DNA of 62,612 nt, filler included, from Candidatus Woesearchaeota archaeon CG1_02_57_44 (GTDB lineage: Archaea > Nanobdellota > Nanobdellia > Woesearchaeales > CG1-02-57-44): the NCBI GenBank assembly GCA_001871415.1. It is 5 parts of 5 records of this genome, joined end to end, with 100 filler letters (N's around TTAATTAATTAA, not from the genome) between each part and the next. Parts side by side here need not be neighbours in the genome. Positions count along the whole stretch, not along the records: positions 34,583 to 51,663 come from MNWW01000045.1; 4 more parts are not named here. The stretch is one strand, 5' to 3'. Shown here in pieces: positions 34,583 to 62,612 of the stretch (the first letter of the stretch is position 1; every line of letters starts with the position of its first letter). Below the pieces are notes generated by a model. The model saw only the letters and a program-made list of their open reading frames with translations, had not been told where the DNA came from and ran no database searches. The position numbers and the translations under genes were made by a program.

Positions 34583-34798
34583 AACAACAGGGGTAATCTT
34601 GTAATGGATGACATGAGTCCTGCGGGAATAATCCCGCAAATCCCAACCCCCAATATCCAAGCGTTGTGACCAACGCTTAAGCGTCCTAACGGACGCTTCA
34701 AACAAAAAAATTGCTTTAAGAATACGCTGACAGGCAGCATAACTGTGGCCAGCAAGCCTGAGTTTAAAGAATTCCCGACGCACAAGCTCTTTCTCCAT
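34583..34798 (-). CDS. transposase N-terminal HTH fragment
   Basis: SVRTLKRW..R....G...LRDYSRR resembles the IS481/IS630 HTH region. Confidence 0.75.
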
Positions 34799-34871
34799 AA
34801 GGACACCACCCCAACAATGTCCTCAAAAGCCAGAAATTTAAGGATAGTGACATATGTCATGGCCCAGCACA
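34583..34871 (-). mobile_element. left end of an IS481-like insertion sequence, truncated by gap
   Basis: Minus strand starts TGTGCTGGGCCATGAC (TGT terminus) and runs into a transposase-like HTH ORF; located at a contig break. Confidence 0.7.
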
Positions 34872-35311
34872 TTCAGTTATGTGCTTTGAGATGTGGGATT
34901 AGAAGTAAATTATAACTAATTATAAGTAGTTGGAAGTAATGTTACTGCTCTTGAGTTCATTGGTCTGAACAACAGGAGTAAGACCCTTAAACTCAAACTA
35001 CTGGCTTGACTGCACGCTTCAATTAATGCAATTTAGACTGTCGGCATCAAAATATCACTACTAAATGTTTGACTGTTAGAATCAAAGAAAAATCAAATTG
35101 AGGCAGTTGGCCCCCCACTTCAAGAACAACCTATCTGAACAGCCGAGAATGAATATCTTTTAATTGAACAGGACGGTGTCGGTACGGCTCTGTGCTGGCG
35201 GTCTTGCCGGCAGCGAAGGCCACGCGCAGGCGTCATCTGTCTGTATGGGCGCGGAGATGATGACGACAATGAGAATAATCACTCTGCTGGTGCGTTCTCC
35301 GGGAGAAGGTC

Positions 35312-36091
35312 TCAGCTGCTGCTGACCTGGTCGCCCGTGTCAGTGAAGACAAGGTCATTGCCTGCCCTGGTGATTGTGAACGCGCGTGCTCTGGCAGAAA
35401 GGCCACCGCCCATGGACCCCCAGGTGTCGCCGACCAGGGCGAGCACTTTCTCTTTCTCACGCCTGCCGCTGTTTTGTTCTGTGTAGGAGCCTCCTCCCGG
35501 GTATGATGCGCCGGTGTTCTTGTCCACATGCCGCGCGACTATGCGCTGGATGCCGGGGAGGGCGAGGCATTGCCTGGCCACAGCGAGGCCTTCGCACGCG
35601 GTATTGAATGGCTTCACGTTCTTGCACAGGCACAGGCAGGCGTCCGCAGCGCAGCTCGAAGGTCGCACAAAGGTCTCCCAATCAAGGCCGAACCATCCTT
35701 GGGTGAAGCGTGCCTCTTCGATGCCCTTGGAGAATCCAACCAACGCCAGCTTCTCGTCCAGGTAGAAGGGTGAATCGATGCTCTCGCCGTCATGGCCTGA
35801 GCCCAGCAGGTAGCTCTCGATATCTGCGGTCATGCCATCGAAACTCTCTACAGTGCCCTCAGCAGTGCCGTGATTGAAGAATATGCCTGCCAGGCGGGCG
35901 ATGCCTGCGAAGATGAAGACTAATAGGCCTAACGCGATGATGGCGCTGACAAGATTATTACCTATCAGATCGATGCCGCCTCTTTTCTGTTGCCGCGATT
36001 CGCCATGGACCCTGGACGCTCGCAGGATAGCATCTGTCGTACGCTGGCAAGAACATCGAAGATACGGTACTTTGCCCCTTGCTGCGACCAT
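35312..36091 (-). CDS. pilin-like surface protein with putative class III signal peptide
   Basis: KRG followed by a hydrophobic helix; Cys-rich CxxxxCLCLC region; TTTAAATA box upstream of ATG 36091. Confidence 0.6.
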   Translation of the reverse strand: MVAARGKVPYLRCSCQRTTDAILRASRVHGESRQQKRGGIDLIGNNLVSAIIALGLLVFIFAGIARLAGIFFNHGTAEGTVESFDGMTADIESYLLGSGHDGESIDSPFYLDEKLALVGFSKGIEEARFTQGWFGLDWETFVRPSSCAADACLCLCKNVKPFNTACEGLAVARQCLALPGIQRIVARHVDKNTGASYPGGGSYTEQNSGRREKEKVLALVGDTWGSMGGGLSARARAFTITRAGNDLVFTDTGDQVSSS

Positions 36092-36196
36092 GAGCCATTC
36101 AAGGGCCCTGCATTATTTAAACCATTCGGCGCGATTGGCAATACATTCGACCATGTCATGCCAGCATAATTAAACCCGCGCGTCTTTCCCTGCCAC

Positions 36197-36973
36197 ATGA
36201 ACCGTCTTTCCTGCTGCCCGGTAATCGACCAGCTCTTTGGCGGCGGTATCGAGTCCGGTGTGTTGACGACGGTCTATGGCCCGCCCGCGTCAGGCAAGTC
36301 GACCTTGTGCATGCACGCGTGCGTGAGCGCGTTGCGGGAAGGCAAAGTGGTCTATATCGATACAGAAGGTAATTTCTCTCCAGAGCGCTTCAGCCAGGTA
36401 GGCGGGAGCGCCGACCCCGCGGTGATGGACAAGCTCCTGCTGCTCCGCCCGGCGAGCATGGAAGACCAGGCAGCTGCCATAACCAGCATCCTGGGCATGT
36501 CACCAGGGCGTATCGCCTTGGTGATAGTCGACAGCATCGTCATGCCCTATCGCGTGGAACTGACAAGGGAGCGCGAGCATGGCACGGGCTTGTACCGCGC
36601 GCTGGGCAAGATGGTCTATAATCTTGGATTGCTCGCAGCGAGGCGCGATATCCCAGTGCTGGCGACAAGCCAGGTCTACGAGGACTTCTCTACAGGAAAG
36701 GATGTCGTGGTGGGAGGCGATGTCATCCGATTCGGCAGCAAGGCGCTCCTGGAGCTGCGGCGTGACGACGCCGGTGATAGGACCGCGTTGCTGCGCAAGC
36801 ATCGCTCATTGCCTGAGCGGCAGGTGCGATTCAGGATTGCTGCTGGTGGCATGGAGGGCATATATGAGACCGCAGCGTCACAGGGTACGCCCGCGGCAGA
36901 GGGTCAGGAGTCTGTGGTGACCCCTGATGCGCGCCCTGAATCGGGCAAGGATAGGGAAGAACTGGATTTATAG
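36197..36973 (+). CDS. radB: DNA repair and recombination protein RadB
   Basis: RecA fold without N-terminal domain, GPPASGKS, YIDTE, RadB-diagnostic KHR motif. Confidence 0.92.
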   Translation: MNRLSCCPVIDQLFGGGIESGVLTTVYGPPASGKSTLCMHACVSALREGKVVYIDTEGNFSPERFSQVGGSADPAVMDKLLLLRPASMEDQAAAITSILGMSPGRIALVIVDSIVMPYRVELTREREHGTGLYRALGKMVYNLGLLAARRDIPVLATSQVYEDFSTGKDVVVGGDVIRFGSKALLELRRDDAGDRTALLRKHRSLPERQVRFRIAAGGMEGIYETAASQGTPAAEGQESVVTPDARPESGKDREELDL

Positions 36974-36996
36974 ATTGATGGGACCAACGAGGCTGT

Positions 36997-37566
36997 TCAC
37001 GGTATCCTGTTGAGCTGGCGCATCAGGTAGTTGTCGTCAGGTGAGCGCATGCGCTGGATGCCACCGGGAGCCTCATCAGGCACTTGCTCCTCGGCAACAC
37101 TCGGAGCTGTCGCCGCGGTGGTGGCCGGCGGCTTGGGCGCGCTGACAACGCGCTTCTTGCCGATGAGCAGACATTCGCTCTTGATTTTTTTCTGTGCCTC
37201 GTCCATGTCCTCCGGCGGCAGCTGCTTCGGGGGCCAGCGGAAGTCAAGGCCATCGCCCTCTTTGCGCGGAAGAACAGTGACGCTGAATGTCTCTGCGAGC
37301 GCGGCGTCGGTCGCTATGATATTGGTGCCGCCAGCGCCAAGCGTCTCAAAGAGCGCGGTCGCCGCGAGATTCGCGATAGTGTAGATGTGGATGATGTCCT
37401 CGCGTGGCAGATCAGCGCCCTTGCCCGTGTCGGTCGGAGGCGTGATAGTGACCTGTCCTATGGCAGCGGCGTGGTTGGTTCCTCGGACAACAGCCTTCTC
37501 ATCCTGATACAGGATGGCGATGTCCGCGCTGGCAGAGGATTTAGAAGAGGTCTGCGATGTCATCAA
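36997..37566 (-). CDS. degenerate HIT-like protein
   Basis: ILYQDE, GQV.I.P, GTNII and VLPRKEGDGL parallel the HIT fold, but all triad histidines are absent. Confidence 0.7.
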   Translation of the reverse strand: MMTSQTSSKSSASADIAILYQDEKAVVRGTNHAAAIGQVTITPPTDTGKGADLPREDIIHIYTIANLAATALFETLGAGGTNIIATDAALAETFSVTVLPRKEGDGLDFRWPPKQLPPEDMDEAQKKIKSECLLIGKKRVVSAPKPPATTAATAPSVAEEQVPDEAPGGIQRMRSPDDNYLMRQLNRIP

Positions 37567-38494
37567 GGTTCACCTCCTCTTTGCTGCGGGGCTTATCGTC
37601 TGGGTGTGTGTCATCCGTCAGATCTTCTTCACTATCGTCATCCGGGGGAGATTGCCTGGATGAGGCATCCTCAAGCGATTGTGGCGCCGCTTGTTCATCG
37701 CTTCTTCTGTCCGCAGGTGCGTCGCGCGTAGTATCGTCGACCACATCACCTGCGTCATCGGTCTCTGCTGCTTCCTGCGCAACAGTCGAGAGCGTCCCTG
37801 CCTCAGCGCGGAAGTGCTCGATGATATCGTTGATGCTGATGGTGCTGAACAATTGCTTGAGCTGCTCGTTGCTGTCTATCTGCTGTTTGATGGCGTCGGG
37901 GGTCTTGATGATGGCTTCCTTGAGCTGGGGATTGTTCTCTACTATCTTGATGACCTGCTCTTTGGTGAATGTCCTGACTTGCGCTGGCGCTTCGCGCGGT
38001 TTGTGCCACGACGCGGGGTTGCGCTTGAAGTAGCTCTCGGCCATGGCGAGGATGTTGCGCCCGATGGTCTGCAGGGATTCGGCATCCTGCGTCGTGGTGC
38101 CAGTGGCGTTTAGCATATCCAGCCCGTCAGCTTTGTTGCGCGGTATGACATGGATGAGAAAATGATTGCTCATCTGTCCGGCCGCGTAGCCGGACGCGAT
38201 GAACAGCTGCACCTTGTCGGCGATGGTGGCCTTCTGCACTGCCTCAGCGAATTCGCCCGCGATGCCAAAGAGCCGCTCGAAATCCTCGCGGTCCATGTAA
38301 GGGAGGATAGGATAGTGCTCCCTGGGCATGAGGATGCAATGGCCCTTGGACGCGGGGTTGATGTCAAGGAAGGCGATGATATGCTCGTCCTCATAGACGG
38401 TCTTGGCCTGTATCTCGCCTTTGGCTATCTTGCAGAACGGGCACTGCTTCTTTTGCTCCTCGATGCTTTTCTTTACCTGGTCAGGAAGTTCCAT
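37541..38494 (-). CDS. HIT-domain protein with acidic C-terminal extension
   Basis: CPFC, VYED, FLDINP..KGH, AGQ; triad reads HFLIHVIPR. Confidence 0.85.
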   Translation of the reverse strand: MELPDQVKKSIEEQKKQCPFCKIAKGEIQAKTVYEDEHIIAFLDINPASKGHCILMPREHYPILPYMDREDFERLFGIAGEFAEAVQKATIADKVQLFIASGYAAGQMSNHFLIHVIPRNKADGLDMLNATGTTTQDAESLQTIGRNILAMAESYFKRNPASWHKPREAPAQVRTFTKEQVIKIVENNPQLKEAIIKTPDAIKQQIDSNEQLKQLFSTISINDIIEHFRAEAGTLSTVAQEAAETDDAGDVVDDTTRDAPADRRSDEQAAPQSLEDASSRQSPPDDDSEEDLTDDTHPDDKPRSKEEVNLDDIADLF

Positions 38495-39494
38495 GGCGCT
38501 CCTTGAGCTGCGCTTCCAGCTCAGCGATTATCTTGAGTTCCTCCTCCGGATTCGGGGTGGGGTCGACAAAGTCGGTGATGACCTCAAGGCGGTCATAGAG
38601 CTTGTTGCGGTTCACCCTGCCGCGCGCTTTGATGATGGATCCGATGAGCTCCTGCTTGAGCGGGATGAAATCTTCCGGCGCTTCGCGGAACGCTTCCAGT
38701 CCTGCATCGTCCTTCTTGAGCAATTGCGCGGCTTGCTGCCTGAACAGGACGAGCCGGATGCTGCCTGTGCCATCATCGAACATGGCGTTCAGCACACAGC
38801 CGTAAGCAGGTGACACGACGCCATGCGTGTCGCAGGCGAATCCTTCTGTTCCTGGCCGCGCGCGTCTGTTGCACTGAGGGCATATCTCAAAGAAGCGTGG
38901 GTCAAACGCCTGCACGATGCTACCGACCAGTTCCACCTGGTCTCCCTCAGCAAGGTCCGCGACCCATTTGCGTTGCGGCCCTGTGACAGCGATGTCGATG
39001 CCTTCTGGATTGATGTCTATCTTGCTGCGCTCGTTGCAGTGCAGCTCTTTTGCGCCAAGGTTATTGGTCTTGGTGTAGGCGCCGGATACCTTGACGATGT
39101 CGCCTTCCTTGATGTTCGCGATGGTCTCGGCGAGGTCCCCCCACATGACGACCCGTATGCTGCCGCTCTCATCTGCGATGACAAAGGATGCGAGCTTTCC
39201 GCTTCTGCCCTCACGGGAGAATTCGCGCTTCTCGAACACACGCGTGACCCTGCCGGCCGTCTCCACATTGCGCAGTCCCTGTTGGATGTTGGCTATCTTA
39301 AGCTGCGTGCTGGCGAGCGCTGCTGGCGCGAGCCGTATACCGAGCTCATTGGCCACGATGTGGACTGCGCCTTCTTTGGAGATGAGGCCTGAAAGCTTCT
39401 CGATTTTCTCCTTGACTTTCTGGTCAAGCTCTTTCTGGTTGATCTTGCCGGACTCGAGCACCTTGGCGACGAGCTCATCATAGTTCTGTTGCAT
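38481..39494 (-). CDS. rpa: replication protein A (OB folds plus zinc finger)
   Basis: DESGSIRVVMW and DDGTGSIR OB motifs, CPQC...CDTHG zinc finger. Confidence 0.88.
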   Translation of the reverse strand: MQQNYDELVAKVLESGKINQKELDQKVKEKIEKLSGLISKEGAVHIVANELGIRLAPAALASTQLKIANIQQGLRNVETAGRVTRVFEKREFSREGRSGKLASFVIADESGSIRVVMWGDLAETIANIKEGDIVKVSGAYTKTNNLGAKELHCNERSKIDINPEGIDIAVTGPQRKWVADLAEGDQVELVGSIVQAFDPRFFEICPQCNRRARPGTEGFACDTHGVVSPAYGCVLNAMFDDGTGSIRLVLFRQQAAQLLKKDDAGLEAFREAPEDFIPLKQELIGSIIKARGRVNRNKLYDRLEVITDFVDPTPNPEEELKIIAELEAQLKERHGTS

Positions 39495-39624
39495 GGGATA
39501 CCGGGATTGCCCTGCGCATTTATAGTTTGCGGGTGGATAGGGAATGACGTCTGAATCAATGGTTGATGCTCTTAAGGGTTTCTGGCTCATCTGAGGTTAT
39601 CAGTGGACAGTCAGGGAGCGCAGC

Positions 39625-40098
39625 TTATAAGTGCGATACCAGATTTCGTACGGATGTCGTCTGTTCAGAAGTCAGTGTCTCGCAGACGCGTTTCATCTCC
39701 AATACAAAATCCAGCAGATCATCATGGTCTGCGGCGACATCCTTATTCTTCAGGTAGTACTGATTGTCGATGCGAAGTTCCTTGTCTTCTTCGAGTGTGG
39801 TGGATGTGCCTGCCCTGATGATGCCTTCTGATTCAAGCATAGAACACAATGCGATGGTGCATTCGTGGATCTCTGAGCGTATGCCCAGTTTCATCAGCAC
39901 AGCGGTGAACGCGAAATACTCGCAATAGTATTTGGTAGTGGCAAGCCACATGTTGGAGGTTTTGCCGATCTGCTCAAGCACTTGCAGCGTTTCCTGAGCG
40001 CTCTGCAGGTACTCCTGGCACAGCTGCTGGCTGGTCTCACCGACCCTTATTCCCCGACGCTGTTGTTTGCACCATCTGACGCTGGCCAATGCATCCAC
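39625..40098 (-). CDS. HEPN domain protein
   Basis: W.....YY..Y....A.L...G....H pattern, RIDNQYY motif; overlaps the MNT gene. Confidence 0.8.
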   Translation of the reverse strand: MDALASVRWCKQQRRGIRVGETSQQLCQEYLQSAQETLQVLEQIGKTSNMWLATTKYYCEYFAFTAVLMKLGIRSEIHECTIALCSMLESEGIIRAGTSTTLEEDKELRIDNQYYLKNKDVAADHDDLLDFVLEMKRVCETLTSEQTTSVRNLVSHL

Positions 40099-40676
40099 CG
40101 CACGAATCGTTCAGTGCCCTGGATGAGCAGGTGTGTTCTTATGAGTTCCGCGCGCAAACCCGGAGAGATTTTGCCGGTCCCGGAAACTGCGATGATATGC
40201 GCTCTCTTCTTGGTCCAGGCGAGCGCGTCCTGCAGTGCTGACTGTTTTGCGCTGCCGAGGATGAGCATATCAATATCGCCGGCTTTTTTGATATCCTCTG
40301 CTGCAGAACCAAAGATGAGGGAATCTTCTTGCACGTGCGCGTGGATGGCATCCACTACTGCTGCGAGCAAGGGGGACTCTCGCAGCTTCCTGATGAGCGC
40401 GAGTTTTTCGGCAATGGCAAGCGCGTCAAGCACGAGGGGACTTTGCAGGTTCACGTGAAATAGGCTCATCCTGCCTTTGTGGGTCTTCTGCAATAGTCCC
40501 TGCATTTCAAGCCTGGCGAGCCACAGTCTGACTGTTGGGTGCGGCTGGCCAAGCGCTCTGGAGATGTCAGCGAGATGCAGCCACTCGCCTGGGCACGGTA
40601 GGAACGGTATGAGTGCTGCGTAGGTGGTTGCGCCTGCTACTGGCGCCTTCGGCAATGTCGTTAATTTGTTGACCAT
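40047..40676 (-). CDS. wHTH-minimal nucleotidyltransferase (MNT)
   Basis: wHTH LADISRALGQPHPTVR, IFGS...GDIDML motif; start uncertain. Confidence 0.8.
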   Translation of the reverse strand: MVNKLTTLPKAPVAGATTYAALIPFLPCPGEWLHLADISRALGQPHPTVRLWLARLEMQGLLQKTHKGRMSLFHVNLQSPLVLDALAIAEKLALIRKLRESPLLAAVVDAIHAHVQEDSLIFGSAAEDIKKAGDIDMLILGSAKQSALQDALAWTKKRAHIIAVSGTGKISPGLRAELIRTHLLIQGTERFVRWMHWPASDGANNSVGE

Positions 40677-40767
40677 ATTGTTATTAAACTGTTTGTGGTT
40701 ATTATGCTTTTTGGTTCTCATTGCTATGGTCTGCAGGAATGGATATGGGTGTTCTACCGCATCTTTT

Positions 40768-40904
40768 TTATTGCAAAGCACGGGGTTGAATACCCCGTCC
40801 TTCAGGACGTGCTTTGCAATTCAAAAATCCGCCTGCAATGACGAGGCGCGGTAATACCGCGGCCTTCAGGCCGCGGTTAGCGCCGAGTGGCGGATTTTTG
40901 TTAT
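40768..40904 (+). mobile_element. structured 137-bp repeat, copy 2 (consensus)
   Basis: Identical to the reverse complement of copy 4; TTAT ends; two perfect 12-bp enclosing stems. Confidence 0.75.
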
Positions 40905-40928
40905 TCGTTCTTAATTATTCGTTCTTAA
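40901..40928. repeat. 14-bp tandem duplication at the element 3' end
   Basis: TTATTCGTTCTTAA x2. Confidence 0.9.
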
Positions 40929-41166
40929 ATGCAGACCGCTGTCCGCAAGCCTTCCGGTTTCTCCCACAATCCACTGGTCAGAGCCCCGCAGCACATATAA
41001 AGCAGCTGGCCGACCTAATGCTCACGCCGATTGAGGCTAGGGTGCCACGACCTCCCGTGCCCGCGGCGCATCATCCGGTCCACAAGGACATTGTTCGTCC
41101 CTGCGGTCCTGGCGGTGCGGTGCGTGCGCGGTTGAAAGAAGATGCGAACAGCAAGAGGTGGAGCAA

Positions 41167-41487
41167 ATGAAGGAAGCGAAGGAAGTAAAGCAAGACGAAA
41201 GCGAAGCCCAGGAGGGCTCTGAGGAACGCTCCGGCAATCCGCCGGAGAAGAAGTTCGGTGCGGGCGCGGTGAGCGCGAGCATCTGGCGCAATGAGGCAGT
41301 GCGCAAGGATGGCGAACCGGTCGCCTACTACAGCGTCTCGCTGCAGCGCCGCTATAAGGACAAGGAGGGCAACTGGAAGTCTGGTTCTCTGAGGACGGCA
41401 GACCTGCCCAAGGCCATGCTGGTGCTCCAGAAGGCCTACGAGTATCTTGTCCTCAAGGGTGACGAGCCGGATGAGGATGTTTTTTGA
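41167..41487 (+). CDS. small protein, putative PC4-like ssDNA-binding fold
   Basis: GAGGTG SD; GAVSASIW.N, SVSLQRRYKDKEGNWK followed by a helix; lies upstream of radA. Confidence 0.7.
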   Translation: MKEAKEVKQDESEAQEGSEERSGNPPEKKFGAGAVSASIWRNEAVRKDGEPVAYYSVSLQRRYKDKEGNWKSGSLRTADLPKAMLVLQKAYEYLVLKGDEPDEDVF

Positions 41488-41512
41488 CCGCAGGGCAACC
41501 TGCGGATTTTTT
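41488..41512 (+). terminator. hairpin plus T-tract terminator
   Basis: CCGCAGG-GCAA-CCTGCGG followed by ATTTTTT immediately after the stop codon. Confidence 0.65.
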
Positions 41513-41548
41513 GACGACGATTGAACAATAATTATAAAGGTGAACGCA

Positions 41549-42577
41549 ATGGCCCAGGTAGCAGAGCTGATAGAGATGGACGAAGAACAAGAAGAGCAGG
41601 AAGCGCAGGCAGAGACGCCAGCTGTGAAGTCGGCAGCAAAATCCAAGAAGGATATAACCGCCCTTCCCGGTGTCGGCGCCGCGACTGCTGAGAAACTCAA
41701 TATAGCTGGTTATACGACCATGATGAGTCTTGCCGTGGCGAGCCCGGGCGAGCTGGTCGAGGCGTCAGGCATCACGGATGCCGCTGCGCGAAAACTCATC
41801 AAGGCTGCCAGAGAGAACATGGACATGGGCTTTGTGTCTGGTGAGGATGTGCTCAAGCGCCGTGAGCTGGTCGAGCGCATATCGACGAGCGCGGGCTCAT
41901 TGAATACGCTGCTGGGAGGCGGTGTAGAGACCGGTGCTATCACGGAGTGCTTCGGCGAGTTCGGCTCAGGCAAGACGCAGATAGGTCATACGTTGTCTGT
42001 GATGGTCCAGAAGATGGATCCTGCGAGCATCGTGCTCTACATCGATACCGAGAATACCTTCAGGCCTGAGCGCATCGTGCAGATAGCCAAAGGCCAGGGG
42101 CTTGACCCTGAGCAGATATTGCGCAATGTGAAGGTCGCGCGCGCGTACAACTCTGATCATCAGATGCTGCTGGCCGAGCGCGCCGAGGAGATGATAGCGC
42201 AGCAGGGAATCAACGTCAAGCTCATCGTCGTGGACTCCTTGACCGCGCACTTCCGCGCTGAGTTCATCGGCAGGGGTACGCTTGCGGAGAGGCAGCAGAA
42301 GCTCAACAGGCACATGCACAATCTGCTGCGCACCGCCGACACGCACAACGTGGCCGTGTATGTGACCAACCAGGTCATGTCCAGGCCCGATGTTTTCTTC
42401 GGCGATCCGACTGCGGCCATCGGCGGGCATGTGGTTGCGCACGCGAGCACGTATCGCATCTACCTGCGCAAGGGCAAGAAGGGCAGCCGTGTGGCCAAGC
42501 TCATCGACAGCCCCAATCTGCCAGAGGCGGCCTGCGCGTTCTTTGTCGAGGAAGGCGGGCTGAAGGACGCGGCCTAG
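41549..42577 (+). CDS. radA: DNA repair and recombination protein RadA
   Basis: N-terminal HhH domain, [46 protein letters not shown]. Confidence 0.97.
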
Positions 42578-42616
42578 GCTGCGATATTTGTTTTTTCTAT
42601 TCTCTCTATCGCTTCT

Positions 42617-42751
42617 TGATTTCTTGCGAGGGGTCCATACCCCGCTCTTGAGGGCGCACCATCGCAAGGACCAGAACTCTGCGCGCAGTAGCGAGGCGCG
42701 TCATACTGCGGCCTTCAGGCCGCGGTCAGCGTTGAGCAGCGGATTTCTGAT
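42617..42751 (+). mobile_element. diverged member of the structured repeat family (TGAT ends)
   Basis: Shares CGAGGCGCG, GCGGCCTTCAGGCCGCGGT and GCGGATTT; same two-domain fold with compensatory changes. Confidence 0.7.
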
Positions 42752-42796
42752 TCAGTGACCATCGGCTTATTTTATCTGGACTTTTTCCCGCCCGTC

Positions 42797-43579
42797 ATGC
42801 GATTCGATGATGCCATGCCCGGGCTAAGTGATGACCGCTTCATTGACCCCTGCCTCCGGCGTGCCTGCAGGCAGGTGATGGCAGATGAGCGCTACACTCC
42901 CCGATACGATACAGTCGATGACATCCTGCTTATCGGGGTCGATCATCAACCGTTCGAGAACGGCCGTCCAGAGGCGTGCAAGGAGCTCGGGCTGCGTTTA
43001 CGCACCTTGGACGATTGCTCTTTCGAGACTGATGGCTATCCTTTTGAGCAGGGGCTATCCAATAACTTTGAGACCTCTGCATACAGGATGTTCAGGGGGA
43101 ACAAGCATTTTCTGGACGCGGACGCTGATTATCCGGCCATGATGGAGCAGGAAGGCGTTCCCGGCATCATGACGGGCCTCTTCGCGCTCCAGGAGTACAT
43201 GCAGCAGGTGGTAGTCCACAGCAGGGATGCCCGGGATGCAAAGGATGCGATGACGGCAATGCTCAGGGAACTGAGGCGCCCCGGCCAGCATATGCAGGCT
43301 TTGCTGCGCTACAAGGCGCCTGACGCTGCAAGGGATGTCTACTATGATCTCATCGTGGACATCCACTCAGGGGATGATGCGTCCGTGGGCGAATCGATGG
43401 GTCAGGTCATGCAGGCGACACACGCATTCACCCGGCACCTCGCTGTCGCGCGTGACCACTACCAGTACGCGCCACGTCTGACCGCTATCCGTGATGCATC
43501 AGCAGGGAGCACTGATGCCATCCTGAAGCGCATGCCAATTATTTTATACTCTCCCCTGTTTGCAGCCCTTCATGAATAA
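42797..43579 (+). CDS. hypothetical protein
   Basis: 260-aa ORF with genome-like codon usage; overlaps the next gene. Confidence 0.65.
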   Translation: MRFDDAMPGLSDDRFIDPCLRRACRQVMADERYTPRYDTVDDILLIGVDHQPFENGRPEACKELGLRLRTLDDCSFETDGYPFEQGLSNNFETSAYRMFRGNKHFLDADADYPAMMEQEGVPGIMTGLFALQEYMQQVVVHSRDARDAKDAMTAMLRELRRPGQHMQALLRYKAPDAARDVYYDLIVDIHSGDDASVGESMGQVMQATHAFTRHLAVARDHYQYAPRLTAIRDASAGSTDAILKRMPIILYSPLFAALHE

Positions 43580-45662
43580 GCATCAGACCGTGCTGCTGGG
43601 CAGCCTCGCGATAACCTTGGTGGTGTTCTTCGCGGGCATTGGTTTGAACTATGTATTTGATTTCTACCGGCTTGAGGAGGTCACCCGCGTTGTTGGCATG
43701 CAGCAGCTCGCGACCGACAGCTACCTGCTGCATGATCAGGCGAATATCGCATACGGCCTTGACCGCTGCACCCTGTTGGGCGATCGCGTCACCGAGCTGC
43801 GCAAGTCCACGCAGAAGGTGGGTATCGACCTGCAGAACTACGGTGTGCTCTCCTATTTCAAGAAACAGGATTTTGATTATCTGCGAAGGCAGTACTACCT
43901 GCTGGAGCTGCAGCTCTACGCGCTGGTGCAGGAGTATGATGCGCAATGCTCGAATGTCTACACGCCTATCCTGTTCTTTTTTGACGAGAGTCCCATATCC
44001 CAGCGCCAGGGATTTGTCCTGGAAGATGTGACCCGCGCGTTTGATGACGCGGTCGTGCTTTCCTTTGATCTGGAATACACAGGTGAGCGCATCCTGACCG
44101 AGTTGGCCGGGCAATTCAATATCACAGAAGCGCCTGCCATGGTCATAGGTGGTCAGTTGCATACAGGCATAACCTATCTTGGCGAGATAAACCGCTCAAT
44201 ACGGGATCATCGTTATCAGGTGGACCCCTACGCGTCTGTGGATTTCTCCATGGTGCCAGTGGCTTCTGGGCTGGGGCTTTTGACTGTCGAATCACTCTAC
44301 GCGCCGCTGCTCAATGAGAGTCTGCCTCCTGTCGCAGCAGGCGACATCCGTCTGGTCCTGGGCAGGCTGCGAGGCGACCCTGACATGATATGTTCAGCAT
44401 TGGCATACTATGACCAGGCAAGCATCAATGCCACGACAGAAGAGCAAGCTATCCTTCTGGAGGCGATTGCGAGTATCGGCTGCGGCAGAAGTCGTAGGGC
44501 ATTCCTGTTTGAGGCCGCAGACCGTTGGGATGCGCTGAATGTTTCCTGGCGTGCGGTAATTGACAAACGCATCGCCTATGGTCTGCCGCTGGGATTTGAT
44601 GTCGATCTACAGCCTATCGCGCCAGTGGTGGCGGTCCCAAAAGACCCGCATGAGCTGCTCATCGGGCAGACAGCGCTATTGCTCGTGGAGAATGATACGT
44701 TGCTCTCACAGGCCGACAGAGTCTCGCGCGACTGGCTCAGCGGGCAGCTGTATCAGGCGCCAGACAGCACAAACAGGACACTGACGACCTTCAGTGAGCG
44801 CTTGTCATGGACTCCCGAGGAACTGCATCCGGACATCGGCTGGCACGAGGGCGCGCGTATCAATGACCTGAAAGCTGAGCTGCCATTGCGGCATGTGATT
44901 GGTACAGGTACACTGGTGGTGAGGTCCAATGGCAAATGGTACGCTCCCAATGAGCAGGGTGTCTTCATGTTCGAGGTGCCGATAGATAAGGTATCATATC
45001 CGACAGCGTTCTTCCTGACACCGGATGTGGCGGTGCTTCCTGATACGCACGGCGTCAATATGCTGGTCGAGCAGGCGATACGCGACCACGCGGATGTCGT
45101 GGTCGGCTGCTGCGATCATCCGGGCAAGGTGCAGGCGGCGGCGTATCTTGGCGAGCGTAACATCAGCGTTATTTGCCTCACTGACTTGTATGTGCCTGAT
45201 GCCATTGGTCATAACCTGCCATTAGTGGGAAGCCCGCCGTTCGCGCGCACGCCTGAAGGCATAGAGGTAGGCGACCGTCCGTTGTCCATTGCGGTGTACG
45301 AGCCGCTGGTGGTGATGAACGCGTCTGATGAGCAGTACGCGCTCTGGTACTACAAGACCCCTGCACGTTACTTTCGTTCCATCGAGCAGTTCGTCGACCT
45401 GAACGCGACCTATGTCACCATACACACGTTCGCGGGCATGGACGAGGTCGTTGCGATGGCTGATGCGACAGGCGCGCAGGTCATTGCCGTGCGTGTCTTC
45501 AGCAGCAATGATTACGAGCAGGTCAAGGCGTTCTTGGACGAATCGCCATCGCATCAGGCAGTGCTCTTTCATTCAGCGTCGTATCCATTCGGGCAGAAGA
45601 TATTCAGGGAGTATCCAGGGCAGACGACATTTGACGACCCGAATATATTGGTAGTATCCTAG
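43572..45662 (+). CDS. membrane-anchored multidomain protein (thioredoxin-like region plus unknown domain)
   Basis: N-terminal TM, ILFFF...QGFVL...FNITEAPAMVI thioredoxin-like segment, C-terminal DTHG and GCCDHPGK motifs. Confidence 0.75.
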   Translation: MNKHQTVLLGSLAITLVVFFAGIGLNYVFDFYRLEEVTRVVGMQQLATDSYLLHDQANIAYGLDRCTLLGDRVTELRKSTQKVGIDLQNYGVLSYFKKQDFDYLRRQYYLLELQLYALVQEYDAQCSNVYTPILFFFDESPISQRQGFVLEDVTRAFDDAVVLSFDLEYTGERILTELAGQFNITEAPAMVIGGQLHTGITYLGEINRSIRDHRYQVDPYASVDFSMVPVASGLGLLTVESLYAPLLNESLPPVAAGDIRLVLGRLRGDPDMICSALAYYDQASINATTEEQAILLEAIASIGCGRSRRAFLFEAADRWDALNVSWRAVIDKRIAYGLPLGFDVDLQPIAPVVAVPKDPHELLIGQTALLLVENDTLLSQADRVSRDWLSGQLYQAPDSTNRTLTTFSERLSWTPEELHPDIGWHEGARINDLKAELPLRHVIGTGTLVVRSNGKWYAPNEQGVFMFEVPIDKVSYPTAFFLTPDVAVLPDTHGVNMLVEQAIRDHADVVVGCCDHPGKVQAAAYLGERNISVICLTDLYVPDAIGHNLPLVGSPPFARTPEGIEVGDRPLSIAVYEPLVVMNASDEQYALWYYKTPARYFRSIEQFVDLNATYVTIHTFAGMDEVVAMADATGAQVIAVRVFSSNDYEQVKAFLDESPSHQAVLFHSASYPFGQKIFREYPGQTTFDDPNILVVS

Positions 45663-45666
45663 GGAC

Positions 45667-46137
45667 CTACTTCACTTTCAGGATATCGCCGATAGTGAGC
45701 GCCACGGCTTTGCCTGTGGCAGCGACGCCTGGCAGCTCGACTTCTGTTATGAGCGTGATGTGCAGTGTCTGCTCAAGTTTCTCAGCGACGCGAAAGCTTG
45801 GCACGGTCTTGTCTTGCTCTACCTTTGCCAGCAGTGATTCTTTTTCCGCGAGTTTTTCCGCGAGCTGTTTTTGTGTCCAGTTGCGCTTCTCGCGGGCCTT
45901 GCGCACGCGCTCGGCATAGTCGCCGACAATGCGCTTTTCTGGCGCCGCTGGCGCGGGTGCGCGCGCGAAGGATCGCGCAGCTGCTGATTTGTTTCGCTTC
46001 ATCACTGGCGCTGGTCTTTGCAGCAGCCGGGTGTTTTTGGCATACCTGCTGCAGGATTCGCACAGGGACAATTCGCTCCCTTCTACTGTTCCCTTCAGTG
46101 TGGCTTCTTTATCACACATCTCACATCGCATGCGCAT
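45667..46137 (-). CDS. mbf1: archaeal multiprotein bridging factor aMBF1
   Basis: N-terminal CEMC/CESC zinc ribbon, Cro-type HTH, terminal TIGD motif. Confidence 0.9.
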   Translation of the reverse strand: MRMRCEMCDKEATLKGTVEGSELSLCESCSRYAKNTRLLQRPAPVMKRNKSAAARSFARAPAPAAPEKRIVGDYAERVRKAREKRNWTQKQLAEKLAEKESLLAKVEQDKTVPSFRVAEKLEQTLHITLITEVELPGVAATGKAVALTIGDILKVK

Positions 46138-46316
46138 CCCCCTCCTATCAGGATAGGTGCGCTGGTATTTCTATATTGGCATTGCTCCTGAGGTGAACTT
46201 GTTCTGCCGGCAGTAGTCAGGGCTTTGCTCTCTAGCTTTGCACGGACTAGTTCATAGGTGCGATCCTGTTTGCGGTCATCAGCACGCTTTTATAGATAGC
46301 AAGTCTCCTGCCGGGC

Positions 46317-46922
46317 ATGGCAGAGGAAACCTTTGTGCTGGTATCCCTGGACGAAGGCCAGGCGCAGGCAGTCGCGAGCGTGCTGACCAACCAGAAGGCC
46401 AGGCGCATCCTTGATCACATATCGCAAGTCAAGAGCGCGACAGAGACAGAGATTGCGCAAGCCCTGGCAATGCCGCTTTCCACTGTTCACTACAATCTCG
46501 GTATACTCAAGAAATCGGGGCTCGCTGACGCTCCGGAATATCATTACAGTGATAAGGGTAAGGAAGTGAGCCACTGGCAGGCTGCGTCAAAGTACATTGT
46601 CATCGCGCCCAAGAAGACCGAGAAGCTCGGGCGCATGCTCAGGAAGGCGCTCTTCTCTATCATTGGTACGGCGGTTGTAGGCTTTGGCATTGCGCGCTTC
46701 ATCGCTCCATCCGGATTGGCAGGGGCAGGTATTGCGGTAAAAAGCGTGCCTGTGGCCATGCAGGCGGCCGCTGACACAGGAGCGAACGCAGTGCAGGCTG
46801 CTGGACCTGTCGCGACAGGAGCTGCGGCATCATTTTGGCCCTGGTACGCTGTTGGCGCGGTTGTGCTGGTATGCATGTATCTATTGGTGGACTATGTTAT
46901 GGACCGTAAATACTCCTCCTGA
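46317..46922 (+). CDS. ArsR-type HTH protein with two C-terminal TM helices
   Basis: TETEIAQAL.MPLSTVHYNL HTH, YSDKGKEV wing, hydrophobic helices. Confidence 0.85.
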   Translation: MAEETFVLVSLDEGQAQAVASVLTNQKARRILDHISQVKSATETEIAQALAMPLSTVHYNLGILKKSGLADAPEYHYSDKGKEVSHWQAASKYIVIAPKKTEKLGRMLRKALFSIIGTAVVGFGIARFIAPSGLAGAGIAVKSVPVAMQAAADTGANAVQAAGPVATGAAASFWPWYAVGAVVLVCMYLLVDYVMDRKYSS

Positions 46923-47091
46923 GAACGTCTATTCTGGTTTATTCTGTATTCTGTCTAGTCGGGCATGGCGTGGTTCTAGCGTTCTTTCCAATGACCATCA
47001 GTGACCCTATTTGCCCTCCTCGCGGGCTGTCGCTAGACCGTGACAAAACCTGCAGTTACTTTTATAAACAATCCCGCGCCCCGCATGTCCT

Positions 47092-48069
47092 ATGAGTGAG
47101 CTGCTCATTGACGTAAAAGGGGTGACCAAGCTTTACGGCCGTCGTCTGGTGCTGGACCGTATCAGCGTGAGTGTCAGCAAAGGTGAGGTCTTTGGCATCA
47201 TCGGTCCTTCAGGATGCGGCAAGACCACATTGCTCAATATCATCATGGGTTCCGTGCGTCCGGAGGAAGGGCAAGTGCACGTGCTGGGCACATCGCTGTT
47301 TTCCGCGGGCGCCTCTCACAAGGACTTGCCTATGTTGACTGTCGCGACAGAGTGGGATGAGGTAAAGAAGCTCTTCGGGTTCGCGGCCCAGGAGCCAAGC
47401 TTCTATCCGAAACTGACGGTCCGTGAGAACTTATATTATTTTGGCTCCATGTATGGTCTCTCCACATTTGCCCTGGAGGCCAATATCAAGACCCTGCTCT
47501 CGCTGCTTGAGCTGGAAGCGCACGAGAGCGCTATTGCGCAGAATCTTTCCGGCGGCATGCAAAAGCGACTGGACATCGGCTGCGCGCTCATCCATGACCC
47601 GCATATTCTTATCCTCGACGAGCCAACAGCGGACCTGGATCCCAAGCTGCGCAGGCAGATGTGGGACGTGCTCAAGAAGGTCAATCGACGCGGGACAACT
47701 ATCATCGTTTCCAGTCATCTGCTCGAGGAGATTGAGACCATCTGCGATCGCATCGCCATCATCAACAAGTCAGGCATCGTGGGCATGGGCCTGCTGCGTG
47801 ACGTGAAAAAAGAATTCTCACGTCATGAGGAGATACGTCTGGAGACCAGCCCTGGCGACTATGGGCGTATCATCACAGAGCTGCGAAAGAATCGGTTGGT
47901 TCTGCAGGTCGTCGAAGATACAGGCCGCCTGCATATCCGTTGCAGGAAGGCCGAGACGTTGCTGCCGCAATTGCTCAGGATGCTGGATAGGCGCAAAGAG
48001 ACGGTCATGGACCTGAAGGTGCGTAAGGCGTCGCTCAATGAGATCTTTGAGGTGCTCGGCGATGCGTAA
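47092..48069 (+). CDS. ABC transporter ATP-binding protein
   Basis: GPSGCGKT, LSGGM, LILDEPT; TTTATAAA box at 47061-47068. Confidence 0.95.
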   Translation: MSELLIDVKGVTKLYGRRLVLDRISVSVSKGEVFGIIGPSGCGKTTLLNIIMGSVRPEEGQVHVLGTSLFSAGASHKDLPMLTVATEWDEVKKLFGFAAQEPSFYPKLTVRENLYYFGSMYGLSTFALEANIKTLLSLLELEAHESAIAQNLSGGMQKRLDIGCALIHDPHILILDEPTADLDPKLRRQMWDVLKKVNRRGTTIIVSSHLLEEIETICDRIAIINKSGIVGMGLLRDVKKEFSRHEEIRLETSPGDYGRIITELRKNRLVLQVVEDTGRLHIRCRKAETLLPQLLRMLDRRKETVMDLKVRKASLNEIFEVLGDA

Positions 48070-50035
48070 GGTGTTGGCCATTGTGCAAAAGAACCTGAAG
48101 GTGCTCTTGCGTAGCAGGTCATCCGCCCTAGTCATCATCCTCGGGCCATTGTTCCTGATGTTCCTGGTGGGTATGGCGTTCAATACGAGCGACCCCTACA
48201 AGATAAGGCTGGGATGGTATGCGAGCGACGTCACGGACATGACGTCGTCGTATGTGGAGAAGATCTCCGAGGGCTATCCCATTGAGCAGTACGCGACGCT
48301 CGCGTCCTGCATTGATGACATCAAGCTGGGGCGCATCCACACCTGCATCGCGTTCCCTCCTGGTCTTGGTGTCTATAATAATATGACTCAGGAGGTAATC
48401 TTCTACGCTGATTACAGCAAGATCAATCTTGTCTACAGTGTCATCTCATCCGCATCCGAGCGTGTGCTCGCCAGGACAGACGAAGTCAGCGCGGACCTGA
48501 CGGGCGTGCTGATAGACACGCTGAACGGCACGGCGACGCTCATCACGCGATCCCTGCCAGACCTGCAGGCTGCGCACCAACAGGCAGTGGACGCGGCCGC
48601 CACCATACGTGAACTGGACGCGACCCTCGGGATGATGAACATCTCATTCAGCGAGGAGAGCTTTGGTACAGCGTCTCTGGAGGCGCAGATGCGTGATTTC
48701 GCGAACCAGACCGCGATGGTCGCAGCCCTGGGGGCCGATGTGCTCAACACTACGCAGGAGCTGTTGCTCAACATCACAACGGCATTGGAGGACATGGCCG
48801 GGACCGTGAGCGCGAACTCGTCGACAGGTCAGCGCATAGCATTCTTGCGTGCGCATGTTGATGATTACAATGAGACCTTCCTGAACGAGTCACGAAAGCT
48901 CATCGATGTCAGCAACCTCTCCTCGTCACTAACTACTATGCGGACTTCATTTGGTGACCTGAACGCCGAGCTTGGCAGCACCAGGGAACGCCTGGACGTT
49001 GCGAGCGCTGCCCGTGACGATGTGAGAGCGTCATTGCAGGCAGTAGCTGGATTGCTAGACTCTGTGGTCATGCAGGCGGATAGTGTCATCGGCGTTATGG
49101 GCAGCATCGCTGGGGCGATCGATGATATCCAGATAACCAACGTGCAAAGCATTGTCATGCCTGTGCGAACGCGGGTGAAGCCTGTGGTGGAGGAGAAAAC
49201 GCATCTCAGCTACATTTTTCCGTCGTTGATCGCGCTGGTGGTCATGTTCGTGGCCATTCTGCTCGCCACGTCCATGACCTTGCTGGAAAAGAAGTCGCGC
49301 GCGTTCTTCCGCAATTATATCACGCCGACCGGGCCATTCGTTTCGCTGGTGGGCATGTTCCTGACCATGATGATCCTGCTCATTGTGCAGGTTGTCATTA
49401 TCATTGCCCTGAGTCATTGGCTCTATCAGGAATCAGTGACCCAGGCGATAATTCCCCTTCTGCTGACCCTGCTGCTCTCATCGTCCATGTTCACGCTGTG
49501 TGGCATGCTGGTGGGCAACATCTTCAACAGCGAGGACACCGCGACGCTCGGGGCGATATCGTTGTCCAGTGTCTTCCTGCTGCTCAGCAGCCTGATACTG
49601 CCGATCGAGAGCATGCCTGATGTCATCGCTAATCTCTCGCACTTCAATCCCTTTGTCCTGACCGATACGCTGCTCAAGAAGAGCATCATCTTTGGCAAGG
49701 GCCTCGACAGCATGGCAACAGAGCTGCAGGCCGTCGGGTGGTACATTGTGGTGCTAGTAGTGCTCGTGGCCATGGCCGCATATCTGTCGTACACGCGTCT
49801 TCCCGAGCGTGCCATCCTGCGTCGCAGGGTGCGCATTATGCGGGAAAAAGGTGCAGGATCTACAACGGAAAAGCAAGGTTCTCATCCTGCCTCAGATGCC
49901 GCAGTATCCGACGAAGCGGCGGGTGGAAGGGAATGCTCTGTCAAAGCCGGAAAGCGCAAGCAATCGCTCGCGGTGCCGCCTCTGCCTCCACTGGGGCGCA
50001 AGGTGCGTCATTTCTCGTCGAGAAAACTGCGTTAG
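48062..50035 (+). CDS. ABC-2/YhgE-Pip-like permease with long extracytoplasmic helical domain
   Basis: Same architecture as 25254-27119 (HxC, P(V/I)ESMP, NP motifs shared). Confidence 0.85.
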   Translation: MRKVLAIVQKNLKVLLRSRSSALVIILGPLFLMFLVGMAFNTSDPYKIRLGWYASDVTDMTSSYVEKISEGYPIEQYATLASCIDDIKLGRIHTCIAFPPGLGVYNNMTQEVIFYADYSKINLVYSVISSASERVLARTDEVSADLTGVLIDTLNGTATLITRSLPDLQAAHQQAVDAAATIRELDATLGMMNISFSEESFGTASLEAQMRDFANQTAMVAALGADVLNTTQELLLNITTALEDMAGTVSANSSTGQRIAFLRAHVDDYNETFLNESRKLIDVSNLSSSLTTMRTSFGDLNAELGSTRERLDVASAARDDVRASLQAVAGLLDSVVMQADSVIGVMGSIAGAIDDIQITNVQSIVMPVRTRVKPVVEEKTHLSYIFPSLIALVVMFVAILLATSMTLLEKKSRAFFRNYITPTGPFVSLVGMFLTMMILLIVQVVIIIALSHWLYQESVTQAIIPLLLTLLLSSSMFTLCGMLVGNIFNSEDTATLGAISLSSVFLLLSSLILPIESMPDVIANLSHFNPFVLTDTLLKKSIIFGKGLDSMATELQAVGWYIVVLVVLVAMAAYLSYTRLPERAILRRRVRIMREKGAGSTTEKQGSHPASDAAVSDEAAGGRECSVKAGKRKQSLAVPPLPPLGRKVRHFSSRKLR

Positions 50036-50488
50036 GTACCGGTTGCCAGCGGGCACAGAGTTAGCATCCTGCAGAGTGAACTGTACACATTCATTGCGTG
50101 ATGCTCCTTCATGGTTGATTGATGTTCGCCGTGGTCTGTATGCTCTCTCGTCGACAGCAAGACAATGCACTCTTGCCGTTGGTGCTCATCGGCCATGAGG
50201 TTGACGTGTCAGCGGGGCGGGAGGTGGGCAGCTATCTCGGCTTGCGTCGCGGCCAGGAAGGTCTCGAAGCTTCAGAACGCCTTCCGCAGGCCTGATAGAA
50301 TGTCTTTCATAGTGCCTAAGCTCACTTTTCACAGTATTTTGATGGAGTATTTCATCCATTGTCTAATGAGTGTCTTAGCCTAGTCCGGCTTGCGCGTTAC
50401 AGACTCCCTTATGAGGGCATATTGGCCTTAGTCCAGGATTATGCGCCATCACTTTATATAGAAGATTTTCCTTCTGGATTGTATTGCC

Positions 50489-51031
50489 ATGAAAACATAT
50501 CCTGACACATTTCGCGTCTATTGTATCACGGGAACTCCTGGGACGGGAAAGACTGAAGTGGCAAAAGCCCTATCAGGGTTGCTGGGTGTGCCGTTTTTTG
50601 GCATGGTTGATCTTGAGGTGCAAGGTCTTGAAGCAGCAGGATTCGACCAGGAGCGGGCCTGTAAGGTCATTGACGAGGATATCTTTGCCGCTGCGGCATT
50701 GGCTCTTGCTGAACATAAACGCTCTGAGGGGTGTTCCGGCGTCATTATTGAGAGTCACATGGCTCACTATTTGCCTGAAAACAAGGTCTTTTGCTGCATT
50801 GTGCTGCATTGTGAGCTTCCAGAACTCAAAAAAAGGCTCACAAAACGGGGATATCCTGAGGAAAAGGTGAGGGAGAACCTTCAGGCCGAGATCTTTGACA
50901 TCTGCGGTCAGGAAGCCATAGAAGCAGGTCACAGATGCCTTGAGCAGGATACTTCAAAAACGACCGCAAAACAGGCTGCAACGGCCATTTTTGAGGCTCT
51001 CAAGGGGATTCCAAAAAGGACCGTGCGTTAA
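50489..51031 (+). CDS. adenylate kinase, AK6/Fap7 type
   Basis: ITGTPGTGKT, IIESH, RL..RGY..EKV.EN..AE. Confidence 0.9.
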   Translation: MKTYPDTFRVYCITGTPGTGKTEVAKALSGLLGVPFFGMVDLEVQGLEAAGFDQERACKVIDEDIFAAAALALAEHKRSEGCSGVIIESHMAHYLPENKVFCCIVLHCELPELKKRLTKRGYPEEKVRENLQAEIFDICGQEAIEAGHRCLEQDTSKTTAKQAATAIFEALKGIPKRTVR

Positions 51032-51436
51032 TCAATTACCGTGATACTGCCGTGAAGCGCAGTAGGGGCGCGAAATGCCCGTAATTATAGCTTCTGGGCT
51101 GTCTATCTGCTATTTTGTGCTGATGTGCGCTTCTCTGGCTGTTTCAGCAACCCTCACTTTTTACTGGAAAATCAACAATTAGGTGTGCTGTGATGCCTTT
51201 TTATCACGTTTCTCGTGGGTTGAGTGTCATTTTCAGGTATGTCTGCACTTGTTTGCCACTTGTTGTTTGAATCATTGTTGCGGGAACCCTGGCCTGCCGT
51301 TGGCTTGCTCATTCGGCGGGGGGGCGAGTGAGTCCTGGTCGGTACGGTAATCTTGTCATGTTCTTGTCAGTTTTGTCTCTTGCGAAAAAGTGAGGATTTC
51401 CCTGGGTTTCCTATTGCGGGGTCCAGTATGTTATGC

Positions 51437-51573
51437 CTATTGCAAAGCACGGGGTTGAATACCCCGTCCTTCAGGACGTGCTTTGCAATTCAAAAATCCG
51501 CCTGCAATGACGAGGCGCGGTAATACCGCGGCCTTCAGGCCGCGGTTAGCGCCGAGTGGTGGATTTTTGTTAT
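51437..51573 (+). mobile_element. structured 137-bp repeat, copy 3
   Basis: One internal C>T at 51560 versus consensus; CTAT left end, TTAT right end. Confidence 0.75.
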
Positions 51574-51663
51574 TTTTTACCTGATCTGTTGATTTTTCAT
51601 TCTCTTTTTCAGGCTCAAAATGAACTACTATTTTACTCGTAAATTAGGCACTATGTTGGGGGT

Positions 51664-62372: not shown

Positions 62373-62509
62373 ATAACAAAAATCCGCCACTCGGCGCTAA
62401 CCGCGGCCTGAAGGCCGCGGTATTACCGCGCCTCGTCATTGCAGGCGGATTTTTGAATTGCAAAGCACGTCCTGAAGGACGGGGTATTCAACCCCGTGCT
62501 TTGCAATAA
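62373..62509 (-). mobile_element. structured 137-bp repeat, copy 4 (inverted)
   Basis: Exact reverse complement of 40768-40904 including both TTAT ends. Confidence 0.75.
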
Positions 62510-62612
62510 CACTACAGCTTCCCTATCGCCTCAAGCAGACGACGGTGTCCTTCGACAAGGCGCTGAAATTCCGCTTGCGTCTCTGGTGACAGGACCATCG
62601 CGCCCTTACCTC

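Follow-up and report, generated by a model that had tools for sequence, protein, structure and literature searches.

Covarying guide and end tetranucleotides in a woesearchaeal repeat family, probably gene-less derivatives of an IS200-type transposon

A short repeat that, in one diverged copy, has altered both the tetranucleotides at its ends and those at the feet of its two hairpins raises the question of what kind of unit it is and whether its own sequence determines where it lands. The locus in question is positions 42617-42751 of a 62,612-nt stretch of DNA (hereafter the window) from Candidatus Woesearchaeota archaeon CG1_02_57_44, which consists of five contigs joined by runs of N and in which positions 34583-51663 correspond to contig C61 of the genome bin (1.53 Mb, 77 contigs, 82% complete). 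Here, G000 denotes this bin, G0xx-G3xx denote relatives of the same order, C numbers are contigs of the bin and L numbers are further contigs or loci. An initial annotation had interpreted the locus as one of several non-autonomous single-stranded DNA elements with DNA-encoded target choice and at least two specificities in one genome, and this interpretation is supported by the analysis reported below, from which it is concluded with high confidence that the repeats are PATE-like, non-autonomous derivatives of an IS200-type Y1-HUH single-strand transposon. Five copies of this repeat, which is about 137 nt long, are present in the window, four of a main family and one diverged:

5739-5876, plus strand: main-family copy of 138 nt, with one extra base; right guide context CAATACAG
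40768-40904, plus strand: main-family copy (covariance model, DNA fold, coordinates read)
42621-42751, plus strand: diverged copy of 131 nt with CATA guides and TGAT ends, very probably a gene-less IS200-type mini-element (covariance-model match of 76.3 bits)
51437-51573, plus strand: main-family copy whose left site, CTAT at 51437-51440, mismatches its own AATA guide
62373-62509, minus strand: main-family copy at the end of the last contig of the window (covariance model)

The diverged copy, taken together with its left site (42617-42751), is identical to the main copy at 98 of 137 positions and is placed between radA, a Rad51-family gene with an HhH domain (PF08423, 280 bits), and the next open reading frame; the open reading frames flanking radA and the copy (41158-41484, 109 aa; 42755-43576, 274 aa) gave no Pfam match at E<=0.01. 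Across the bin the main family is represented by 44 BLAST matches of more than 90% identity, 32 of them full length and 12 cut, mostly by contig ends, and the diverged subfamily by three copies. The boundaries of the repeat are fixed by the positions at which contigs of four other sequencing runs diverge, as these leave the window sequence just before 40768 (some at 40764), and contigs of the same runs show right-hand divergence just after 40904-40907 and, at the diverged copy, divergence before 42617. Once repeated flanks are removed, the distinct left flanks of the main family in the bin (n = 20) carry TTAT in 17 cases, TCAT in two and CTAT in one, all 24 copies with distinct right flanks end in TTAT, and this right end is followed by T in 18 cases and by C in six. 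All three copies of the diverged subfamily have CATA 5' of both hairpins and TGAT at both ends.

Each copy is composed of two subterminal hairpin domains on one strand, each with a 4-nt guide 5' of its hairpin. The ends of the main copy (TTATTGCAAAG... and ...TTTTTGTTAT) are not complementary, so that terminal inverted repeats are absent, and the same holds for the diverged copy. In IS608, recognition between guide (g) and site (c) includes a g4:c4 pair in addition to the crossed pairs g1:c2 and g2:c1, and the target of the related ISDra2 is TTGAT. Read in the terms used for IS608, the diverged copy has the following parts:

42617-42620, plus strand: putative left cleavage and target site (CL), TGAT, preceding all three subfamily copies; in the IS608 model it belongs to the flank and not to the element
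42636-42639, plus strand: left guide (GL), CATA, at +16 to +19 from the presumed cut; the crossed rule predicts TGNT
42640-42656, plus strand: left hairpin region, CCCC GCTC TTGA GGGC G, the counterpart of IPL
42702-42705, plus strand: right guide (GR), CATA, immediately 5' of the foot of the right hairpin
42706-42725, plus strand: right hairpin (IPR), CTGCGGCC TTCA GGCCGCGG (DNA fold and coordinates read)
42748-42751, plus strand: putative right cleavage site (CR), TGAT, with which the element ends in all three copies, 22 nt past the hairpin

The corresponding parts of the main copy, with the closing stems taken from the DNA fold, are:

40768-40771, plus strand: left site (CL), TTAT
40789-40792, plus strand: left guide (GL), AATA
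40853-40856, plus strand: right guide (GR), AATA
40857-40876, plus strand: right hairpin (IPR)
40901-40904, plus strand: right site (CR), TTAT, 24 nt past the right hairpin
about 40770-40782 with 40808-40820, plus strand: closing stem 1
about 40822-40833 with 40889-40900, plus strand: closing stem 2

Reading of the sequence confirmed every tetranucleotide coordinate that the initial annotation had given for these two copies, the position of the left guide at +16 to +19 as in IS608, and its two caveats, namely that the right site lies 22 nt (diverged copy) or 24 nt (main copy) from the hairpin and that the third copy begins with CTAT. Its description of four coordinated single-base changes is too exact, since the alignment produces the right TGAT through a 2-nt deletion (TTTTTGTTAT against TTTCTG--AT). 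The extension of the left site to TTGAT, which it had also noted, is present (42616-42620) but restricted to one of the three subfamily copies, the others having ATGAT and CTGAT. Beside the main copy, a 14-nt unit (TTATTCGTTCTTAA) that starts with its terminal TTAT is tandemly repeated at 40901-40928, and a second TTAT target thus stands 14 nt downstream of the end of the copy.

Folded as single-stranded DNA, the main copy forms the two domains, each closed by a long stem, with an energy of -47 kcal/mol (z -8.9 against shuffles). The elements measure 131-133 nt without the left flank site. In an alignment of 112 copies, which was fitted to the structure and hence leans towards the model, 92.9% of the paired cells are complementary as against 39-48% when the partners are slid, and all 50 pairs vary on both sides; the stems clearly change in sequence between genomes, yet remain paired. 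No match to Rfam at the gathering score was obtained in the whole window.

While BLAST with the repeat against 40 relatives returned nothing, a covariance model based on the four main-family copies in the window recovered the family, at E<=0.1, from 44 of the 150 same-order genomes searched (41 at E<=0.001). One of the 44, G131, is flagged as unpublished, and copy numbers between 10 and above 20 are found in many of them. At the level of the phylum, a sample of 150 relatives contained 15 genomes with a match at E<=1e-6, all of the same order. A pattern scan of genome contigs yielded 10 single bacterial matches that were set aside as chance-like, and scans of viral contigs gave one unrelated match and otherwise none.

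Copies with their flanks were taken from 36 relatives, printed and read. In the TTNA-looped hairpin the 5' arm spans 8 nt, or 9 nt where one base is bulged, and the tetranucleotide immediately 5' of this arm was taken as the guide. The tetranucleotide at either extremity of the block common to copies in different flanks was taken as the site. Both were called by eye, because an automatic hairpin and guide caller mis-set several loops. Subfamily ends were counted, by majority call, where at least two copies occurred in different flanks, giving 28 left and 28 right ends. According to the initial annotation, the crossed rule (g1:c2, g2:c1, g4:c4) would assign TTNT to AATA and TGNT to CATA, and this rule, with all three predicted pairs, fits 28 of 28 left and 28 of 28 right ends, that is 56 of 56, which correspond to about seven independent compensated changes and not to 56, since the subfamilies share descent. 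A parallel rule fits 46 of the 56 ends and an antiparallel rule none, and among 100,000 shuffles of the sites none reached 56 (mean 25.9). The guides and sites pair as follows:

guide AATA or AAAA, site TTAT: 36 ends
guide AAAG, site TTAC: 10 ends
guide CATA or CAAA, site TGAT: 7 ends
guide ATAG or ATGG, site ATAC: 2 ends
guide AGTA, site CTAT: 1 end

Crossed pairing, of the kind seen in the IS608 structures, is indicated by the CATA/CAAA, ATAG/ATGG and AGTA classes. At the third position the guide has T, A or G, and the site has A throughout. A further combination, GAAA with TCAT, occurs in one single copy (G334 L220), beside a sister copy with CAAA and TGAT. Additional CATA copies all end in TGAT, both in the own genome (3/3) and in G026 (5/5). 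Several subfamilies have unlike ends, each of which fits its own guide: ATAC on the left and TTAC on the right in G080-A and G359, CTAT and TTAT in G050-b, and TTAT and TGAT in G055-X, G064, G184 and G334. In six genomes held out and fetched after the rule had been fixed (G339, G279, G166, G359, G184 and G334), both ends fit in every case. Taken together, these comparisons of sequence argue that the guide specifies the cleavage site by base pairing.

Individual copies do break the rule. In the bin these are three of the 20 left flanks and the copies on C4 and C30 whose right end is TCAT. Among relatives, the left site mismatches in G026 L074:270, G055 L178, G080 L070, L092:2744 and L093, and G139 L175, and the guide mismatches in G008 L084, G057 L106:1996, G064 L167 and L171, G098 L132 (right) and L133 (left), G107, G109, G128 L081, G138 L129, G147 (right), G279 L210 and G286 (left), as well as in the IS of L187; the right end of G139 L169 is decayed, and G083 and G053 L147 gave no confident reading. 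Many of these mismatches place a guide G opposite a site T and are located in single or visibly decayed copies.

A source of enzyme was sought both in the bin and in its surroundings. A profile search of G000, which is 82% complete, returned neither PF01797 nor TnpB (PF07282). An HUH transposase does belong to the lineage, PF01797 being present in 102 of 300 relatives of the same order, and its co-occurrence with the repeat is modest (23 of 44 genomes with the repeat versus 33 of 106 without it, assuming that the same genomes, G001-G150, entered both searches). When the TnpA of a relative was compared by tblastn with the bin and with 27 metagenome contigs holding the repeat, one contig matched, L035, which lies outside the bin. 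Its first 597 nt are identical to contig C29 of G000 and are followed by a main-family copy and then by an IS200-type element that directly follows the terminal TTAT of this mini-element. The tnpA gene of L035 is intact (137 aa, DHIH and YIRNQ motifs, PF01797 at 100 bits), and its product matches the solved TnpA proteins of ISDra2, IS608 and Sulfolobus at E values of 1e-9 to 1e-12.

The left end of the L035 element reads TGGCCCGCGGTAGCGGGCCTTTGGGTTT-AATA-CCCCGCCC-TTTA-GGGCG with TTAT as left site, and its right end reads GATA-CCCCGGCC-TTCA-GGCCGGGG-AGGAGG-TCAT. Both ends obey the crossed rule (AATA/TTAT and GATA/TCAT), the left specificity is that of the mini-elements themselves, and the right hairpin differs by two base pairs from that of the mini-element, CCGCGGCC-TTCA-GGCCGCGG. 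A Y1 transposase gene flanked by matching ends, which the initial annotation had suggested looking for, was thus found in the same population, with an AATA/TTAT left end and a near-identical right hairpin. Remnants of IS ends of the L035 type are present in the bin (C32:205-240 and C44:68380-68460); the right flank of L035 is absent from it, so that L035 may be a chimera joined through the repeat. Beyond this contig, the same 8-bp, TTYA-looped hairpin with its guide adjoins tnpA in nine of 31 tnpA loci under a strict hairpin filter, and a fitting right site (TCAC or TCAT) follows the hairpin in eight of the nine, L197 having no assignable site. Eight of eight tabulated transposase-bearing ends fit the crossed rule. 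In G138 the right hairpin of the IS agrees with that of the mini-element without a mismatch over 20 nt, and in G128 it does so nearly. For the G076 IS, two copies start at TTAG with guide AAAC, and the left hairpin layout of the diverged copy is that of the left ends of transposase-bearing IS copies. Two candidates were rejected in the course of this search: the G080 copy on L070 beside a tnpA is a separate insertion and not an end of that IS, and a 106-nt flank found on ten contigs, considered as a possible transposase, is the end of a Fic/Doc-family gene together with a small open reading frame.

For IS608, a single-strand peel-and-paste pathway has been established in the studies cited here (PMC3201880, PMC5934647, PMC5027513), and these describe a left guide AAAG at +16 to +19, in which A+16 pairs with T-3 and A+17 with T-4, and a right guide GAAT (PMC5934647, PMC3201880). 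By analogy, each mini-element would consist of a left-end and a right-end module on the same strand, with a TnpA dimer binding the hairpin of each. When the top strand becomes single-stranded, each guide would pair crosswise with its own site (1-2, 2-1 and 4-4), and TnpA acting in trans would cut 3' of the left site, which belongs to the flank, and 3' of the right site, which forms the last four bases of the element. The ends would then be joined by TnpA into a single-stranded circle, the donor being resealed, and the circle would insert 3' of a tetranucleotide picked by the left guide. The main family, with its AATA guides, would thereby cut and land at TTAT, and the copy at 42617-42751 would represent an old sister lineage that uses TGAT by means of its CATA guides. 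Because in this scheme the guides rather than the protein read the cut sites, compensated changes would give rise to new specificities.

Other accounts of the repeats have to be weighed against this one. Since every helix covaries, the fold greatly exceeds shuffled sequences in stability (z -8.9) and the closing stems have no counterpart in transposase-bearing copies, the repeats could be regarded as a multi-copy structured non-coding RNA gene whose end tetranucleotides are part of the transcript or processing signals. This is very unlikely, given that Rfam yields no match at the gathering score, that the flanks of the copies are unrelated, their boundaries exact and their 5' target conserved, that the guides covary with the ends crosswise across the helices, unlike any simple RNA helix, and that tnpA elements nearby have the same hairpins and guides; a transcript made from the copies would in any case be an addition to the transposon reading and not its rival. 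The equal ends of the two subfamilies in the window (TTAT/TTAT and TGAT/TGAT) would also be expected of a cut-and-paste MITE, moved by a DDE transposase and flanked by a 4-bp target-site duplication. However, terminal inverted repeats are absent, the same tetranucleotide recurs at 17 of 20 loci, the guides would be left without a role, and seven subfamilies have unlike left and right tetranucleotides, which argues against a target-site duplication, and this account is accordingly regarded as extremely improbable.

A further parallel is provided by REP/BIME sequences and their RAYT (TnpA-REP) enzymes, with which the repeats share a Y1-HUH enzyme and, as described for REP systems in the text cited, numerous copies, a position between genes and a short GC-rich hairpin with a guide tetranucleotide on its 5' side (PMC6006769). 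On this account, the repeats would be served by a domesticated, single-copy RAYT-type enzyme and not by a mobile IS. Here, on the contrary, the two hairpins are in direct and not inverted order, the guides vary and are not GTAG, and the L035 tnpA has the IS200-type motifs DHIH and YIRNQ together with left and right ends of its own; in the text cited, moreover, the IS200 subclass is the only one reported in archaea (PMC6006769). It is therefore highly improbable that such a system is involved, and derivation from an IS200-type transposon is the reading retained here.

The kind of element is already known from the IS200/IS605 group and from haloarchaeal PATEs, and the novelty implied by the initial annotation does not hold in that form, as both PATEs and DNA-guided site choice have been described. 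With IS608 of Helicobacter pylori the mini-elements share the lack of inverted repeats, subterminal hairpins on the top strand and, 5' of the foot of each hairpin, a 4-nt guide with crossed pairing; in the diverged copy the left guide occupies the same position as in IS608, and the AAAG/TTAC class of subfamilies corresponds to the left pair of IS608 itself. On the other hand, they are devoid of genes, reside in an archaeal (DPANN) host, have their right site 22-24 nt from the hairpin instead of 10 nt, close each module by a stem of 7-13 bp, carry T, A or G at guide base 3 where IS608 has A, and usually have the same tetranucleotide as left and right site. A right site about 10 nt 3' of its hairpin is a usual trait of the IS200/IS605 family and does not define it. 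Gene-less PATEs have been described in Haloquadratum walsbyi and other haloarchaea (PMC3119063), and a gene-less derivative is also known in Halanaerobium (PMC7290912). Like the mini-elements, PATEs are described as too short to code, free of inverted terminal repeats, provided with near-terminal palindromes resembling those of IS605-type elements from the host genome or its relatives, preceded by a 4-5-nt targeting sequence at the 5' end, present in high copy number and themselves targeted by other small repeats (PMC3119063). They differ in lineage and sequence, and the mini-elements would go back to an IS200-type element that carried tnpA alone, neither a TnpB nor a guide-RNA part having been observed. 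In the passages on PATEs compared here, guide-site covariation is not tabulated (PMC3119063).

What appears to be new is the DPANN family, the breadth of its natural retargeting, the conservation of its long closing stems and the distance of 22-24 nt between its right hairpin and the putative cut site. A search of article texts returned no description of this DPANN family or of a comparably broad natural series of guides and sites. The family provides a natural counterpart to the DNA-guided site choice whose principles were established for IS608 from crystal structures and engineered guides, namely an allelic series within one archaeal order, with at least six guide/site specificities in gene-less elements and three more in transposase-bearing ones, all obeying crossed pairing. 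Left and right ends have changed independently, retargeting in nature proceeds by compensated point changes, and naturally orthogonal guide/site pairs, together with a 137-aa transposase and a substrate of 131-133 nt, may offer a compact assay system or insertion tool.

The closing stems deserve separate consideration. They are conserved by covariation in the mini-elements and absent from autonomous ends, in which the right site is separated from the hairpin by a 6-nt spacer as against 22-24 nt in the mini-elements, where the right-end linker is paired within the long closing stems. Guide and site cannot meet while these stems are formed, so that the stems would have to open during catalysis or serve another role, and a long looped linker is at least plausible, considering that left linkers of 13 to 28 nt occur in relatives. 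As the stems are compensated in more than 100 copies and more than 40 genomes and are absent from transposase-bearing relatives, and as the right cut lies far away, it is conceivable, if rather doubtful, that they and the distant right cut site constitute a self-folding single-strand module with a selected role, beyond that of a deletion remnant. Were this the case, hairpin extrusion might make the mini-element excisable away from replication forks, or a transcript structure might be used by the host; such a module could persist and be retargeted in tiny symbiont genomes that often have no resident transposase, with the enzyme borrowed from elsewhere in the community.

Traces of movement were looked for in the assembled data. 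BLAST with joined flanks gave no true match to an empty site, contigs of the four DNA runs showed no joint that skips a copy of the window, and neither a junction of right and left ends nor an excision product was encountered in the assembled data. The pair L046 and C19, considered as an empty and an occupied site, represents a replaced intergenic region and is not clean. On C29 a TTAT stands unoccupied, as judged from the left junction only.

The fragmentation of this and related DPANN bins into many contigs is accounted for by the repeat, and the assembly bears further marks of it. A left flank of 106 nt is common to ten contigs of G000, at 62510-62612 of the window and at nine other contig ends; it comprises the end of the Fic/Doc-family gene and an open reading frame of 51 aa, and the full gene is found in L027:1730-2273. 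The assembler apparently extends through the repeat into one arbitrary flank, which means that the flank pairs of the bin are not all trustworthy, and L041 joins the flanks of two different copies. Copies reduced to the right domain occur in G000 (C64:10273-10360, C71:8939-9025 and C26:42102-42188) and in L036; their left flank is the reverse complement of their own right flank and all lie less than 500 nt from a contig end, so they may be either fold-back artefacts of assembly or amplification at a strong hairpin or real palindromic rearrangements.

Variant forms and placements were also noted. An extra insert of 45-57 nt with two small hairpins, located in the interval between right hairpin and closing stem or between the two domains, is carried by copies in G000 (C4:3215-3347 and C53:81266-81457) and in L112, L086, L087, L175 and L171, and brings to mind the small mobile repeats for which Haloquadratum PATEs serve as targets. 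A one-hairpin copy of about 60 nt on C22 of G000 (about 13640-13740) consists of TGAT, a CATA guide, the hairpin and TGAT, a form obtainable by deletion between two similar guide-hairpin units. Some elements are situated at, or a few bases past, the terminal site of another element (L133 of G098, L035:726-735 and L167 of G064), a placement that would follow if every right end provided a new target. Finally, one copy, represented by C22:77-213 and C14:6090-6226 of G000, is located 6 nt downstream of a tRNA-like 3' end (…GGTTCAAATCCCGGCGAGTCCAC).
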